From Eledone cirrhosa (lineage: Eukaryota), in the NCBI GenBank assembly GCA_964016885.1, contig OZ024749.1, forward strand, positions 20,832,001 to 20,896,000: a stretch of DNA of 64,000 nucleotides, given 5' to 3'. Of the stretch, positions 4,085 to 63,316 are shown piece after piece; position 1 is the stretch's first letter, and each line of letters begins with the position of its first letter. The notes below the pieces were generated by a model. The model saw only the letters and a program-made list of their open reading frames with translations, had not been told where the DNA came from and did no database searches. The position numbers and the translations under genes were made by a program.

Positions 4085-4631
4085 TTATATATATATATAT
4101 AATGTGTATGTGTGTGTGTTTGTGTGTGTATGATGGCTGCAAACTCAGCTAAAAGTATTGCAATCGATTGTCAGATTATAGAGTTTGGTGCACTTTTAGG
4201 CTACGGCCTGGCATACGAACCTGTAATAGATCCTGAACAAGCAATGCCTGTGCTTTACTTTGAAGGCTTTTTTAAGTGAGGAAAGGCCTTGCACTCAACC
4301 AATCCCACTCTCTGATCATCGAAAACACTACCCAAAAAGGAGAACTGGTCAACATCATCGGATGCTTCCGAAGCCACAGGTTTTTTTTTTTCAGAGTTTC
4401 CCTCTCTTAGAAAGGTGTTGTGACAACAACTGGGGGCCTTTCACTCCCAGGTGAAAAGAAAAAGTACTATTTGGATGGCCGTTGGCTCTGCTGAGTTCCT
4501 CCGCCCTTTGCCGGGTCTTGTATTTCATCCCGCAGGGTGTCCAAATATCACCCTCCCCACAAAGAAGCTTGGTGGGCTTGCCGGTTTAGTCATCGACGAC
4601 CCGATCATGAGACAGGTTGTATATATACACT

Positions 4632-12533: not shown

Positions 12534-14833
12534 GCATTTTTCGGACGATAAGGCGCACCTGATTATAAGGCGCACTATCTATGAACGGGTCTACTTTCAT
12601 ACATAAGGCGCACCGGATTATAAGGCGCACCTGATTATAAGGCGCACTATCTATGAACGGGTCTACTTTCATACATAAGGCGCACCGGATTATAAGGCGC
12701 ATATAGCGAAACAAAACTTTTAGGTAGGTAGACTTTATTCAAGACATTCACGTTAATAACACTCAATATTGTTCACTTTAATAATTGTTTCTACTTTTGG
12801 CATAAGGCCAGCTATTACCCCCACCGCATTACTGGTACTTTATTTTATCGACCCCGTAAGGATGAAAGGCAAAGTCAACCTCGGCGGGATTTGAACTCAG
12901 ACCGTAAAGGTCAGAAATTACAGAAAATTGTCAAAGTCACTTTATTCCCGTTCCTCTTCTTGATCCACAAACCCATCAAAGTCTTCATCCTCTGTATCTG
13001 AGTTTAACAGTTGGACGATTTCGGCATCAAGCATGCCCGGATCCCTCTCGTCATCCTCCCAGTCAGTATCGTCGCTGTTAACTGGCTGATCAGTGATGAT
13101 TCCGGCCTTCACGAGCGCTCGGACGACAGTTGAGACCGACCCCTTGGCCCAGGCATCGATGATCCGTTGGTAGACAGTGGTATAACCAGCCCCCCGGCAT
13201 TGCCTCTCTGTCTTGGTGAAGGTGTGCTCGCCTTCTGTCATCCACTGCTCCCACGCGGCTCGCAATTTAACCTTAAACGACTTGTTAATACTAATATCTA
13301 GCGGTTAGAGTTCTTTGGTCAATCCTCCCGGAATGATGGCAAGCTCCAAGTTAGTTTGCTTCACTTGGTTTTTGACGGTATTGGTGAGATGGGTGTGCAA
13401 TAGGGACGGATATGTGTGGAAAAAAACTACCCGGTCTCTTGGCGTAGACTTCTCCCAGCCACTCGCTTATTTTCTCGTCGTCCATCCAAGCCTTTTAGGT
13501 TGACCTTGACAATAACTCCGGCCGGAAACTTTTCCTTTGGCAGTGTTTTCCTCTTGAAAATGACCATGGGTAGTAGCTTCTTGCCATTGGCCTGGCAACC
13601 GAGAACTACTGTTAAAGATGACTTCTTGTTCCCTGTGGTGCTTATAGATACCGTACGGATCCCTGTTTTCTCGACAGTACGGCTCATGGGGATGTTGAAG
13701 GTGAGGGCACCTTGTCCGTGTTGGAGATGCGGGCTGGCTAGATCTTCTTTTCAGTGATCTTGTTCGTGCAGAAGATGGCCAGCTTTTCTTCGTAATACTC
13801 TGGCAGCTGCTGCGAGACGGTAGTTCTTGTGCGGATGGAAAGATGACGCCTTTTCATAAAACGAAAGCACCAAGAAGGACCTCCTTGAAAATCGCTGATC
13901 TTCATGCCACATGCCATCACTGTCGCCTTGTGTCAAATGGAGACTGTGGAGACACGTCTACCTGCTGTTCTCTGTTCAATGATCCACTGTTCAATTATGT
14001 CCTCTAGCTGTGGCCACCTCGCTTTGTTCCCTCGGAAACTCTGTTTGGTCTTCTTGACGCAGGTCATCTTCTTTCTTCCTCCACTTCCGTACCATTCACT
14101 CGATGATGCTGAACTCTTTCGCAGCTGCTCTATTCCCATGTTCTCTTGTGTGACTGATGGCTTTGACTTTGAAATCCGCTTGGTAAGCATGTCTCTTCAC
14201 AGGTGCCATTTTTAGGCATACTAATAATATATTGAAGTCCAGTGCATGTCATAAAAAGTGGCAGAGGTGAGCGCAAAAGCCTCGTCTTGTTACCTAGATA
14301 GCTACTCTTCTCTGATTGGCTCATCGCCGCCAGAAGAAAGTGGAGGGAGAAAGTTAGGCTGCCTAAGTGAGTAAACAATGACTTACCCCTCACGGCATGG
14401 CTAGATCATGATCTAGACACTGTCAAGTAGACAGACGAATATTTTGAAAATGTTTGAATTTAAAGGGAGGCTGCGAATGAAATTTGAAGGATTTTTCATT
14501 ATGAAGATGCCGACCACAGTGTAAACTTCCGAAACATTGAAGTCAAAATGCCAGCATAAATCGTAATTATAAGGCGCACTGCGCAGGTTCAGTTTGTTGC
14601 TCACGCTAGTGCCGTTGGGAATTTACCATTAGCGCATGCGCGTAAAATCAGACCCGCTGTAATTTGATTGGCTACTGGGTCGATCATAAGCATAGAAATT
14701 GCTTCTGCTTTCAATCATGAGTTAAATTTGGCTCACTAAATGATGTGAAGGTAATAAATCACAACCAGAAATCATACATAAGGCGCACCGGAGTATAAGA
14801 CGCACTGCTGATTTTTTATAGTCCGGAAAATAC

Positions 14834-52240: not shown

Positions 52241-52309
52241 TCAAATTGATGACTTGGAAAATGAAACACGCAAATGATTGCTTTCACTCAATGGATAGTT
52301 GTGGAGGCA
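52241..52309 (-). CDS. PTBP1: PTB last coding exon (RRM4 end): CLHNYPLSESNHLRVSFSKSSI*
   Basis: Acceptor ttttcag at 52310-11; TGA at 52243-52241. Matches the PTB C-terminal LHN....NHHLRVSFSKSTI motif. Confidence 0.95.
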   Translation of the reverse strand, partial: CLHNYPLSESNHLRVSFSKSSI

Positions 52310-52556
52310 CTGAAAACAGGAGAGAGGGAGAGAGAGAAGTTAAACAGTTAAAAGCAACATGTAAATGCTAAAGGGTTAATAAAATACAGTGTTTCAATTA
52401 ATAATAAGAGATTTTATGAAATTATTAATTCTTTTATCACTAACATAGTAATTTAACACGGGGGGTTCTTATATAAAATTAGAAAGCATTTAAAGTGGGT
52501 GGTTTTGTTTTGTAGAATAAAGAGCCAACCCACCACCAACAGGAGGTAATACTAGG

Positions 52557-53160
52557 AGAATCTAATTCAGATAGCCCAGTACCCAGTATACTCTAGCAGA
52601 ATCTAGTTCAGACACAGCCCAGTACCCAGTATACTCTAGCAGAATCTAGTTCAGACACAGCCCCGTACCCAGTATACTCTAGTAGAATCTAGTTCAGACA
52701 CAGCCCTGCACCCAGTATACTCTAGCAGAATCTAGTTCAGACACAGCCCCGTACCCAGTATACTCCAGTAGAATCTAGTTCAGACACAGCCCTGCACCCA
52801 GTATACTCTAGTAGAATCTAGTTCAGACACAGCCCTGCACCCAGTATACTCTAGTAGAATCTAGTTCAGACACAGCCCCGTACCCAGTATACTCTAGTAG
52901 AATCTAGTTCAGACACAGCCCCGTACCCAGTATACTCCAGTAGAATCTAGTTCAGACAGCCTAGTACCCAGTATACTCCAGTAGAATCTAGTTCAGACAC
53001 AGCCCTGCACCCAGTATACTCTAGCAGAATCTAGTTCAGACACAGCCTAGTACCCAGTATACTCCAGTAGAATCTAGTTCAGACAGCCTAGTACCCAGTA
53101 TACTCCAGTAGAATCTAGTTCAGACACAGCCCTGTACCCTATCCCAAACAGAGTCTAGTT
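52557..53160. repeat. 43-bp minisatellite, about 14 copies, in the last PTB intron
   Basis: Unit agaatctagttcagacacagccccgtacccagtatactctagt; unit starts at 52598, 52641 and 52684. Confidence 0.95.
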
Positions 53161-53211: not shown

Positions 53212-53275
53212 AATAAGAGCTTTCACAGCTTCTTCAATGGATCCCATTTGGATGAGGGCCATTTTCCTGTCTTTC
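53212..53275 (-). CDS. PTBP1: PTB exon (RRM4): KDRKMALIQMGSIEEAVKALI
   Basis: 64 nt, tag/GTGAG boundaries, phases 2-0 consistent with neighbours. Confidence 0.95.
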
Positions 53276-53986: not shown

Positions 53987-54061
53987 GGAAAGAATTTGAA
54001 CCCTTTTACAGTGCCATATTCAGCAAACATTTCTTTGAGCTGTTCTTCAGGAACATTAGAT
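53987..54061 (-). CDS. PTBP1: PTB exon (RRM4): SNVPEEQLKEMFAEYGTVKGFKFFP
   Basis: 75 nt, cag/GTAAGT boundaries, phases 2-2. Confidence 0.95.
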
Positions 54062-54572: not shown

Positions 54573-55228
54573 ATCATCATCATCATCATCATCATCATTT
54601 TACGTCCGCTTTTCCCTGCTTGCAAGGGTGGGACGGGTCTTATTCAGCACAGCATCTCTCCACTCGTCACGGTCCCTCGTCATCTCCACCGTGAGCTTCA
54701 ATGATCTGAGGTCTGTTCTCACCACCTCCGCCCATGTTTTTCGTGGTCTACCTCTACTACGTCTTCCTTCAACTGGCATTTCCTGGCACTTCTTCACCCA
54801 TCGGTCATCCTCCATGCGCATCACATGTCCATACCACCTCAGTCTCCTCTCCCGTACACTACATTCTATCCCTCTCAGACACAGTTTCTCTCTCAACACA
54901 TTTATGCTGGGTCGTTCACGCACATTTACACTGCACATCCAACGGAGCATGCTTGCCTCATTTCTCTCCAGCCGTCGCATATCTTCTGCAGTAGCTGCCC
55001 ATGTCTCACTACCATGCAGCATCGCGCTCCTCACACAGGCATCATACAACCGGCCTTTCGTACGCAGGGAGAAACCCTTCTTCGTCAACAGAGGAAGCAG
55101 CTCCCTAAACTTCTTCCAACCCGTCCTTATTCTAGATACTATGGCCTCGGAACACCCTCCTCCCATGCTAATCTGATCTCCTAGGTACCGGAAGCTATCC
55201 ACCACTTCTATAGCGCCCTCTCGCATTT
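54573..55228 (-). mobile_element. Young 5'-truncated RTE-clade LINE in a PTB intron (sense orientation)
   Basis: Uninterrupted ORF IEVVDSFRYLGD...RIRTGWKKFRELLPLL...LHGSETW...RLRWYGHVMRM...RGRPRKTW, with (GAT)n tail at 54573-54598. Confidence 0.92.
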
Positions 55229-55510: not shown

Positions 55511-55629
55511 GGAATGTTAGATAAATGCAAAACTGCTGAGGGGGGGAATATGTTCTGACAGTTCTTTGAACCTGGTCGCTTGAATCTGTGAAGTGGGGAA
55601 TTTGTGTAGTCTCTTGTTAAGCCGGAATC
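55511..55629 (-). CDS. PTBP1: PTB exon (RRM3-4 linker, RRM4 start): [40 protein letters not shown]
   Basis: 119 nt, cag/GTGAG. Diagnostic SPLHRFKKPGSKN..NIFPPSA.LHLSNIP motif. Confidence 0.97.
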
Positions 55630-55736
55630 CTGCCAAATAAAATAGACAGTAGCAGAATGATACGAGAAAAAAACAAACCAGAATTAAATGGAAATTTCAA
55701 GTAAAATGTCAACGCCAACAGAAAGATATCTGCTAC

Positions 55737-55834
55737 CTGCTGGCCTTCCTTCGGCATTTGTACCACTGTGTGTTTCGAGGGAGCCACCCTGATCTGTTTG
55801 CCGTACAAGGTCAGCTTATCCAGGTAAGTTTTGG
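55737..55834 (-). CDS. PTBP1: PTB exon (RRM3): AKTYLDKLTLYGKQIRVAPSKHTVVQMPKEGQQ
   Basis: 98 nt, cag/GTAGC, phases 1-0. Confidence 0.95.
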
Positions 55835-56414: not shown

Positions 56415-56507
56415 CTAGTTGAGCATGGTGAGGCTCGGCCATTTGTACCAGTGCGTTGTCCTTCTTGTTGAAAAGGATTTTCACGCGTTGCACATCACCG
56501 TACACAC
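56415..56507 (-). CDS. PTBP1: PTB exon (RRM3): [31 protein letters not shown]
   Basis: 93 nt, cag/GTATG, phases 1-1. Near identical to the PTB RRM3 motif [16 protein letters not shown]. Confidence 0.97.
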
Positions 56508-57399
56508 CTGAAAAAACAAAAACAACCAGATGTACCAAGACTGGAGTTAAATAACAAACACACTTACTTCAGATTGGTCTGTAAGGTGTGACTTTTTAGT
56601 ACTACTACTAAATATACCTGCCAACCTGTCTATCACAGCAGATATAAATAACTTTAAACCTTTATATATCCAATATTGCACCTGAATCTACAATACAAAG
56701 CTAGATATCTTGAAGTGTTAAAAAACTAACCACAATATTACTAAATCATGATTTTTTTCCTCTCCAAAATTATTTGAAAACCATAGGCAGTGTCTTTCAT
56801 TAGAAATTTGCCTATATTTGTGCTAGATTAGGCTTTTAGTACAATACCACAGCCAGGATATCTGCCACTAGTTTATCACAGTAGATACCAACAGTGTAAC
56901 CCTTTTGATAAACTGCTCACGGTTCTACAATACAAAGCTGTTTATTTTAAAATGTATATATACATCTAAAAAAATCTCTTTATAATTTATGTTTAAGAAC
57001 CCGAGAAACTTATTACCACCCACTAAAATAATAAGCAGTGTCTTTCAGTAGAAACATGGCAATGGTAAAATTAACTAACACACATTCTGTACTACTAAGA
57101 TCAGTCTTGGCTTTTTAGCACTATACTAACTATGTATTTTCTAACAAGTCTCAACTAACAGTAACCAACATTAACATACACAATGCACTAAAAATCATCT
57201 ACATCGACTTATAAAAAGTCAAACCATTATCATGTAAGTGGGGGAAGGAAATTAAAGATAACCGTTGCAGATGAAGGAAAATTGGTTTGGTACCAACAAG
57301 GGCCAAATTATCTTTTAGAGTGCATGTGTTATAATCATTGTTGTGGCATGCTAGTGTGTGTTTGGTTTATATAAATGTGACGCTGGCTGGTAAATTAAG

Positions 57400-57550
57400 A
57401 AAGTTTTATAAGCTAATATATCTGCTCTGTAAATTAATACACCTGGATTATAAATTAATAGTTGGTAAACTAACACAACATCTGGCCTGTAAATTAATAC
57501 AACATCTGCTTTGTAAATTAATACATCTGGTTTGCAAATTAATGTATCTG
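57400..57550. repeat. Short diverged tandem repeat (about 22-bp unit)
   Basis: tgtaaattaatac(a)acatctg repeated. Confidence 0.75.
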
Positions 57551-58583
57551 CTATGAGGTCTATGGAGAATATGAAGATGGAAGGTGCCAGAAAATGTTTT
57601 AAGAAAATATCAATGCTGTGAAGAAGTTTAGCAAAGTGTTCAATGATTGGACTTAAATCTTTAGCTACTTTGATAGAAGACACGATGACCGAGGAGGAAG
57701 AGGACTTTGGAATCAGTGGTATAGCTGAAGAGTATATACCATCGTTGAGTGGAGTGGACTATTATCACATCAACAGCTCTAGAGAAGACCTGACTGAACC
57801 AAGTCACATGGCAAGGTACTACTCCACCACAACCATCATCACTTACCTGAGGTGAGGCATTTTTATTAAAGAAAATAAATAAATAAACAGGTGCTACTTC
57901 AGGAGTTAAAAAAAAACCCTCAGAGGGGTAAATTCTGTACATATAGCAAAACCCACACAGCCCTTGACAAAAGAAACCATCATACTTTAAATAAGAGCTC
58001 TTAGACTATCTTGGATGTTGGAAAAATATATATATATATATATATGTACATAAAAAAAAAAAAACTTTGCAAAACACCTCGCCTGGTGTCAGGAGCGAGA
58101 GAGAGAGCCAGACAGAGAGAAAGATGAAAGGGATGGGGTCAGGGATATGGGCCAGAAATAAATAAAAAATAGAAAGGAAAAGAAAAAAATAGCTAACAAT
58201 AAAAAAAAAAAAGATAAATAAATAGATAAAGCATGATGGAAGTCAGGATTGTTATTAAATTGTTCAGAGGAAGCTGAAGTAAAAGTGTGATTGATTCTTT
58301 GAGAAGGTTGCTTTTTGGTTAAGTTAGTTGTAGCACTACACAAACAGAAATATAAGAGTTGGACACAGCAGAAACTCAGTCAGGTAGTAGTATTAACAGC
58401 AGCAGTAGTAGTAGTAGCAGCAACATATCTTTGTTATAAAAGGATAGAAGAGAAAGAGCATTAAATAGAGTCAGCTGAACTTTTATATTTTCTAGAATTA
58501 ATAAAAAAAAAAAAAAAAAAAAGAAAACTTTATTTCGTGAAATGAAATCAAAAAGAAAGAAAGAGTGCTTTAAAAAAACATAC

Positions 58584-58617
58584 CAAAAAGGGTAAAGAGA
58601 ACATCGGGCGTGACCAT
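58584..58617 (-). CDS. PTBP1: PTB 34-nt exon: MVTPDVLFTLF(G), equivalent of mammalian PTBP1 exon 11
   Basis: ctag|ATGGTCACGCCCGATGTTCTCTTTACCCTTTTTG|gtatg. It is required to join the phase-0 upstream exon to the phase-1 downstream exon. Confidence 0.95.
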
Positions 58618-58619
58618 CT

Positions 58620-58725
58620 AGAGTCAGAGGAACAGGAGTATAGCAGAGCGGAAGATAGGGTGAAATCAGTGTCCAAGTGAGCGATAGATAGTCCATGGAG
58701 AACACCAGCGAAGTAAGTTGGGACG

Positions 58726-58756
<31 letters not shown>

Positions 58757-58858
58757 AGAGATAAAACAGGAACAAATCAGTGGTTGTGAATTTTTTTCGA
58801 AAAAGAAAAAGAAAAGAAAAAAACATGAGATTTATTTTTGTGGCAATGAAAGAAATGT
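58620..58858 (-). promoter_or_regulatory. AG-exclusion zone / extended pyrimidine tract upstream of the 34-nt exon
   Basis: No CT dinucleotide on plus (no AG on the transcript) between 58620 and 58858; rich in UCUU/CUCU. Confidence 0.8.
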
Positions 58859-60289
58859 CTTTTTTTTTTTTCTTTTTAATAAATAAAACTCTGAAAAAGT
58901 AGAGCAGCAAGTAATAATATCAACGGTAGCAGTAATACAGTATAGTATAGGTAGCAGTAGAAGGTAGGTTATTAGTTTGGTAGTGGGTGGTGAGGAACAT
59001 AGCTAGATAAGATAGTTTGGATAGCAAATAGAAGCAGTATCGTATCAGTAAAGGAGAGAGGAAAAAGATGGAGACCGAGAAGATGGTATAATTAATTAGT
59101 AACGGAAGATAGATTAATAACATGCTAATAAGGAAGCATGCATAACGAAGGAGAGAGGGGTGAGGTAGGGAAAATTTAATTTAAAAAAATATATATATAT
59201 ATATGGAGCAAAGAGATGGGTGTTTAAAGAGAACCAAAATATTATCTATATTGGAGCCTTGAAGTTGTGTGGATGAGAAATAGGATTGAGTAGGTAGATG
59301 GACTGAGACAGGCGATGTTGAGAAACAGGGTAAAGACACCACAGTAGTAGTAGTAGTAGTAGTAATAGTGTTTGTGTGGCTCCAGTAAATAATACAGACA
59401 CAAAGCCGATAAAGAATTGGTGCCAGAAAGGAACCAAAAGACAGGAAATTATTTGAAGACATTAAATTAACAACCAAAAGGAGTTGTTTCTCACGAGATA
59501 AACATCAGAGAAAATAATAATAATGATTATCAGAAATCCTGCCACAACCATCACCGTCACACCTCTGCCAATCTTGACCCAACAACAAGAATCACCATTA
59601 GATCTCCACATTTCATCAAGGTAAAGAAGAAGAGTCTTTTGGTTTCACAAAAGACAAGTATTTTTTTGTGGGGAGGGGGGAGACACTAGAGAGTATTCTA
59701 ATTCTAGCCAGCACTATATAAATAAAAACAAAAAAAAAACAACAACAACAAATAACAAACCAACCTTCATCCCACCATGGATGGGTCTTTAAGAGGCAGA
59801 AGAGCATAAAATAAAATAATGTGTAACAGAGATTGGAGGGAGATAGGAGGCGACAGAGGAGTTTTAAATTTTAAAAGGGGTCTTCAGAACGAAGACTTAT
59901 TTTTTTTGGAAAGAACCAACCTGGAGTAAAGATTTAAAAAAAATAAATAAATAAAAATGAAAACAAAATTCCAAAATTCCTGAAGGAGTTTTTCCTTGGC
60001 AGCAGTCATTGTGGTGTAGAAAGTTTGGCCGATCAAGATGATTGTAGAGAGTTTGGTCTGTCAGTGTGGTGGTACAGCAGCAGATTGAGGAGATGATGGA
60101 AGTAGATGAAGGAAGAGCAGATAGATCAGATGAGATAGACGGACAGACGGACGGACACCCTGTCAAATGTATGTAGAAGTGATAGATAATAGATATAGAT
60201 AGATAGACTTAACACCCCAGTCTTTCTGTCCAGATGTTTTTATGTGTATGTATATATATACATAAACACACATGTATTTATTATATATA

Positions 60290-60612: not shown

Positions 60613-60731
60613 CTCTTCATCCAGATTGGAAACCAGGAGTACACAGTTACCAGCTTGAGATTGCAAGGGCATATTGAGCCGGGCTGCACCCATACCTGTA
60701 GCAGTCAAACCAAAGCCAGACATCGGTACAG
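60613..60731 (-). CDS. PTBP1: PTB exon (RRM2-3 linker end, RRM3 start): VPMSGFGLTATGMGAARLNMPLQSQAGNCVLLVSNLDEE
   Basis: 119 nt, cctatcag/GTATG. VLLVSNL is the RRM3 RNP2 motif. The 5' boundary is less certain than the 3' boundary. Confidence 0.9.
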
Positions 60732-63295: not shown

Positions 63296-63316
63296 CTGGC
63301 GGGCCCACTCCAGGAG
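63296..63316 (-). CDS. PTBP1: Candidate 21-nt microexon in the RRM2-RRM3 linker: (A)PGVGPP
   Basis: ttctcttgcttgtag|CTCCTGGAGTGGGCCCGCCAG|gtaagt. Phase 1-1 and frame-preserving, compatible with the next exon. A GC-rich island in AT-rich intron. Confidence 0.75.

Follow-up and report, generated by a model that had tools for sequence, protein, structure and literature searches.

The window, that is, the whole stretch of 64,000 nucleotides of Eledone cirrhosa analyzed here, carries on its minus strand the 3′ portion of an octopod PTB gene, a single-copy gene whose other part was found in the adjoining genome sequence. Exons A to H make up one open frame spanning RRM3 and RRM4, and a peptide of exon E matches, without a difference, PTB proteins recorded under three Octopus species. 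The gene is a PTB orthologue with a cassette exon, exon B, at the equivalent place in RRM3 and with boundaries common to 21 genomic loci. A genome search with one RRM3 exon and one RRM2 exon returned one match each, a PTB locus count of one that, as the result of two exon searches, is a lower bound. The same genome encodes the zinc-binding domain of UPF1. The features of the locus are as follows:

60613..60695, minus strand: exon A, end of the linker and start of RRM3 (gene model; the X4 contig joins A to B, loose end)
Acceptor at 60731, minus strand: longer form of exon A
58620..58858, minus strand: AG-free pyrimidine-rich zone of 239 nt before the cassette exon
58776..58782, minus strand: candidate distant branch point CACUGAU with its A at −160 and a U-rich tract after it (predicted)
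58665..58671, minus strand: second branch-like CACUGAU with its A at −49; its tract is weaker, and it is either a rival or a decoy (predicted)
58584..58617, minus strand: exon B, 34 nt, frame-shifting, in RRM3, with an internal UUCUCUUU at 58601-58594
58521..58583, minus strand: donor GUAUGU, then a U/C-rich stretch containing four UCUU and one AGCACU
56415..56507, minus strand: exon C, containing the skip-frame stop (gene model and X4 contig)
56481..56483, minus strand: premature TGA when exon B is skipped (gene model)
55737..55834, minus strand: exon D (gene model and X4 contig)
55511..55629, minus strand: exon E (gene model, X4 contig and Octopus protein match)
53987..54061, minus strand: exon F (gene model and X4 contig, loose end)
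53212..53275, minus strand: exon G (gene model)
52241..52309, minus strand: exon H, last coding exon, with the normal stop (gene model)

Exon B (minus strand, 58617-58584) has a TAG acceptor and a GTATGT donor, encodes MVTPDVLFTLF(G) and contains TTCTCTTT at 58601-58594, in agreement with the original prediction, made from the letters of this DNA, of a 34-nt exon with an internal motif. Four sequencing runs, their kind unrecorded, contain the stretch, and three were examined. A spliced X4 contig of 907 nt and depth 456 joins A-B-C-D-E-F; exon B is real and is included in this RNA-like contig. No contig that skips exon B was present among the X4 matches listed, and contig assembly drops rare forms. 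Parts of the intron that follows exon B, 57010-58382, are covered by X4 contigs of low depth (4-5.5, about 1% of that of the exons); they possibly reflect slow splicing or pre-mRNA and are too weak to count.

When exon B is skipped, the reading frame ends after VCTVMCNA at the TGA 56483-56481, which lies 66 nt from the next junction and 422 nt from the last. The gene model thereby upholds the predicted position of this stop and its five downstream junctions, and the distance to a downstream junction exceeds the threshold of 50 nt. In flies, the need of NMD for downstream junctions has given mixed results, according to a review (PMC6173133). A premature stop is not particular to exon B. Skipping exon D or exon E yields one too, and therefore the stop alone is no evidence of regulation; we rejected it as such, since other frame-shifting exons also give a stop.

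The locus shows further variation. Exon D has a tandem GT/GC donor (55733-55737, minus strand); the X4 contig uses the GC donor 3 nt beyond the GT, which adds a valine present in some Octopus isoforms. The linker between RRM2 and RRM3 varies among Octopus isoforms by a 21-nt microexon at 63296-63316, a 36-nt alternative acceptor at 60695-60731 (both minus strand) and a further linker exon at 64462 in the adjoining DNA. We take these variants to recall the alternative linker exon 9 of PTBP1. The last coding intron holds a 43-bp minisatellite of 13.8 copies at 52552-53139. An intron stretch at 54600-55220 (minus strand) resembles a LINE retrotransposon at its 3′ end, with a tail of ATG repeats, and the broken reading frames at 12900-14250 (minus strand) resemble a pogo/Tc1-type transposase.

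The AG-free zone and its branch-point candidates

The AG-free run at 58858-58620 is 239 nt long and 74% pyrimidine (A42 C60 G21 T116), which confirms the CU-rich zone of approximately 239 nt that had been predicted upstream of exon B; by the last-12 rule its length is 241 nt. At 239 nt it exceeds the threshold of at least 150 nt set for an AG-exclusion zone. It is the longest among the 18 acceptors of the gene, the others having zones of 30-120 nt. When real and look-alike acceptors on the gene's sense strand are taken together, 100 in all, no other zone reaches 150 nt. Shuffling the zone left it without any AG in 270 of 20,000 cases. With both strands counted, runs without AG that reach 239 nt or more number 15 in the window, and most of the others are simple repeats; the run is a weaker signal than the original prediction implied. 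A wider AG-poor region of 648 nt was not significant (421 of 5,000 shuffles) and was dropped as evidence.

The tetramer UCUU occurs seven times upstream of exon B, once within it and four times downstream, with no excess over composition, so that the UCUU runs predicted downstream are present and not enriched. The counts of PTB-type tetramers were equalled or surpassed by 15% (upstream) and 17% (downstream) of intron windows. Across 16 zones, UCUU stood at shuffle level (76 versus 79), and we rejected UCUU counts as evidence.

In the octopus, the distant-branch rule selects CACTGAT both at −160, with its U-rich tract, and at −49. The tract is stronger at the −160 site than at −49 (U fraction, 0.74 versus 0.37), and the candidate at −160 is probably, with moderate confidence, the one in use. 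A U-tract followed by CAG at 58890-58898 (minus strand), just upstream of the AG-free zone, is a possible cryptic acceptor. Two further motifs, CCCAACTT at 58715-58722 after the U tract and AGCACT at 58564-58569 after the donor (both minus strand), resemble motifs in corresponding positions of bivalve-like and vertebrate loci, by post hoc counts.

The cassette exon and its introns in other animals

Exon B was located in 21 of 30 genomic loci and was not found in the DNA at hand for the other 9. Its length is 34 nt in 19 of the 21 and 31 nt in two bivalve-like loci. Three of the 21 are vertebrate; the other 18 were collapsed to 13 lineages, which together with the window make 14. Among the acceptor zones measured, with just 1-5 others per locus, the one before exon B is the longest in every one of the 14 invertebrate lineages. 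Zones of at least 150 nt precede exon B in 9 of 14 lineages, compared with 0 of 35 other acceptors, and the median zone is 226 nt for exon B versus 47 nt for the others; the lineages are related and not independent, so p-values overstate their independence. In five arthropod-like lineages the exon B zones measure just 71-103 nt. Two vertebrate loci that served as positive control have zones of 411 and 453 nt, with TACTGAC at −358 and −389, respectively, close to the values for human PTB and nPTB.

An alignment of the intron across molluscs, one of the checks proposed with the original prediction, gave no mollusc match to the octopus zone, the best being L012 (p=0.096). Neither did the octopus zone align convincingly to any of the 15 other zones in a test in which masked letters did not count as matches; the lowest p value of the 15 tests, 0.007, belongs to a match that is a U-tract. 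A block of about 50 nt is common to two bivalve-like zones, with a score of 65 against a null maximum of 21. These two loci, L012 (exon at 4309-4339) and L019 (4000-4030), are those with the 31-nt exon, which is one codon shorter and of the same frame class; their zones are 212 and 242 nt long, and their shared block has branch-like heptamers at −72/−65 and −103/−96. The intron is kept as an arrangement, not as a sequence.

Several patterns that we noticed post hoc may serve as leads. The donor GTAYG[TA] occurs at 14 of 17 exon B donors versus 6 of 30 others, CAC[TA] follows the donor in 12 of 17 versus 7 of 30, CCC[AC]?ACT is present in 7 of 16 zones with 2.2 expected, and the share of fixed third codon positions is 0.62 in exon B versus 0.43 in exon C.

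Skipping of the exon was seen in assembled contigs of other animals. A metagenome scan kept 80 of 193 confirmed loci: 45 are contiguous across B-C, 30 have an intron before C, 4 are skipped and 1 was unparsed. The four are spliced contigs without exon B (one gastropod-like, one annelid-like and two arthropod-like) and amount to 4 of the 25 spliced contigs of the intron-bearing type. The gastropod-like pair, L034 and L028, is identical in 126 of 127 columns apart from a 34-nt gap; L018 and L016 agree in 127 of 127 columns and L087 and L082 in 123 of 127, the first-named contig of each pair lacking exactly the 34 nt, and the skipped contig L024 is without a close partner. In trees, L028/L034 fall with caenogastropods (SH-aLRT 96-98), L018 and L024 fall among arthropods, and the proteins matching L082/L087 group with the annelid Dimorphilus (100/99; node open in a second tree), all placements being inferred from a limited set of named references.

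Skip-frame tails including the stop fit 27 of 63 stored PTB proteins that end soon after the exon A motif, for which the null is 1 in 100,000 random 8-mers. The 27 come from vertebrates and insects (Anopheles atroparvus, Chironomus riparius, Menopon gallinae and one dipteran-like), and the named ones may be products of gene models. There was no mollusc skip protein among the 378 proteins tested and no mollusc skip form among the protein cluster members; proteins of the oyster cluster whose start lies within exon C were left uncounted as ambiguous. A targeted search of short cephalopod proteins returned one intron read-through and no skip form.

One arthropod group departs from this pattern. 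A set of 24 contiguous loci, which group among arthropods, carries a diverged peptide at the place of exon B; we presume the group to be copepod-like. The loci L050, L057 and L067 are genomic; an intron follows exon C in all three, but no intron separates B from C. Nor does one separate A from B in L057 and L067, the two whose sequence extends that far. Skipped forms number 0 of 24, and the early skip-frame stop is kept in 9 of 19 distinct loci with the diverged peptide versus 30 of 34 of the intron-bearing type. By these sequences, the clade has lost both introns that flank the 34-nt exon, with relaxation of the early stop, and with the flanking introns lost it could not skip the exon. Should the great age of a long zone with a distant branch point hold, the disappearance of this zone and of both introns in the clade would amount to a natural knockout of PTB feedback.

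A probable feedback switch and its alternatives

Why would an octopus PTB gene keep a 34-nt exon behind such a long zone? We propose that exon B, the frame-shifting exon in RRM3, probably acts as a negative-feedback switch by which PTB limits its own level. The branch point chosen by U2 would lie far upstream, with −160 as the best candidate, leaving a long pyrimidine tract before the exon. Abundant PTB would bind the long tract, the exon and the downstream intron and thereby force skipping. The skipped message would stop after VCTVMCNA and be destroyed by NMD, which would lower PTB and buffer its level. We regard the switch as conserved because skipped contigs occur in four invertebrate lineages, the long zone is found in 14 of 14, and proof exists in C. 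elegans.

Protostomes and vertebrates likely received the switch, along with its long AG-free zone, from the ancestor they share; what persisted is an arrangement and not a sequence, and this age is drawn from protostome and vertebrate loci. That the long AG-free zone together with a distant branch point, and not just the exon, has been kept since this split with no alignable sequence has, in our view, a slightly better than even chance of being correct. The original prediction traced the architecture to the bilaterian ancestor; the zones, longest in all 14 lineages, speak for this, but the octopus zone aligns convincingly to none of the others. Its other general claim, a switch conserved in an invertebrate, agrees with the skipped contigs of four lineages and with the long zones, but such conservation is not new, having been in print since 2016 for C. 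elegans ptb-1 (PMC4876481).

The alternative that survives best contests just the branch-point step of our explanation. The switch might use the near branch point at −49, the AG-free zone being a platform for PTB binding and not a scanning path. The heptamer at −49 is identical to that at −160, the block shared by the bivalve-like loci has its branch-like heptamers at −72/−65 and −103/−96, and a branch heptamer passes the tract rule in just 4 of the 14 invertebrate zones. Nevertheless, the tract is stronger at −160, and in human PTB a high-scoring site at −51 is dispensable, whereas the one at −351 is essential (PMC1940037, PMC1431707). Use of the near site is a possibility that we find doubtful.

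Exon B could also be skipped under the control of another factor, or be skipped without decay and give rise to a stable two-RRM protein. Skipped contigs occur often enough to be assembled (4 of 25 spliced contigs of the intron-bearing type), UCUU is not enriched, and the CAC-type motifs after the donor (12 of 17 versus 7 of 30, post hoc) may indicate another protein. This explanation is unlikely, however, in view of the skipped form in worm and human, which is PTB-dependent and NMD-sensitive, and skipped forms are visible in the worm without a block of NMD (wild-type PSI about 77; PMC4876481).

Quite improbable is an exon B that is constitutive in the octopus, like exon 10 of human ROD1/PTBP3, with the AG-free run as a by-product of poly-U and low G in a repeat-rich genome. 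X4 shows inclusion only, AG-free runs of 239 nt or longer occur 15 times in the window, and the wider 648-nt region is not significant. Yet the zone is the longest of 18 acceptors and stands alone among 100 with look-alikes included, the pattern of long zones recurs in 14 of 14 lineages, a gastropod-like contig skips the exon, and ROD1 exon 10 has a conventional branch point. Hardly credible is a repeated, independent origin of skipping at an ancient pair of introns: the octopus intron has no sequence alignable to the 15 other zones (best mollusc p=0.096), but the same exon, boundaries and donor type (14 of 17 versus 6 of 30) occur across groups, with the long zone in molluscs, other spiralians, arthropods and vertebrates and skipping also in nematodes.

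Taking exon B as PTB's own feedback switch, we see a textbook loop, proven in vertebrates and one nematode, extended to molluscs and other spiralians. The PTB feedback mechanism itself is already known; what this analysis adds is comparative: skipping in spiralians, conservation of the zone and one intron loss. These data suggest that selection maintains the layout of an intron, AG-free and rich in pyrimidines, across very long spans of time even as its individual letters are replaced. If true, the long zone with a distant branch point would be among the oldest intronic regulatory architectures known. The octopus offers a testable single-gene PTB circuit in a large-brained animal without a PTBP2 paralogue.

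Relation to known PTB switches

The octopus locus is a probable further case of the known PTB feedback switch and adds modest evidence that the intronic architecture is also ancient. We found no literature report of a mollusc PTB switch or of an invertebrate AG-free zone at this exon, although subscription papers and supplements may hold such. Passages of PMC8797185, PMC4094481, PMC7764535, PMC10551640 and PMC6173133 contain nothing on invertebrate exon skipping.

Skipping of human PTBP1 exon 11 is PTB-dependent and NMD-sensitive, and human PTB has a zone of 381 nt with a verified branch point at −351 (PMC1940037, PMC1431707). Like it, the octopus gene has an equivalent short RRM3 exon, a frameshift on skipping and a long AG-exclusion zone, in which a branch-like heptamer is followed by a U-rich tract and a second candidate lies near −50. 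Unlike it, the octopus zone measures 241 nt and not 381 nt, and its candidate lies at −160 and not at −351. By a published estimate, only between a fifth and a half of the AG-free zones of 100 nt or more in human mark distant branch points. Compared with the vertebrate loci, the octopus intron has no alignable sequence, and the octopus switch is a predicted one.

In C. elegans, ptb-1 exon 11 is 34 nt long and skipped, and the skipped form is NMD-sensitive, as seen in smg-2; skipping depends on PTB-1 and is absent in the ptb-1 mutant, and conservation with mammals was stated (Tomioka et al. 2016, PMC4876481). The words "branch" and "AG exclusion" are absent from the main text of that paper. Worm and octopus share a 34-nt RRM3 cassette in a protostome PTB gene, the skipping of which gives a frameshift and a stop. 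They differ in that NMD sensitivity and PTB-1 dependence were demonstrated in the worm, whereas in the octopus, a spiralian, both are predicted.

Exon 10 of PTBP2 (nPTB) is the same exon. Human nPTB has a zone of 438 nt with a predicted branch point at −389, and the vertebrate locus that we measured has a zone of 453 nt, TACTGAC at −389 and the donor GTATGT. Cross-regulation from PTBP1 to PTBP2 needs two paralogues, unlike the octopus genome, in which one PTB gene was found; regulation of that type therefore does not apply, and self-regulation alone is possible. Finally, human ROD1/PTBP3 exon 10 is the equivalent coding exon, with no skipping among ESTs and a branch point about 21 nt upstream, and ROD1 is without the long zone that the octopus has.
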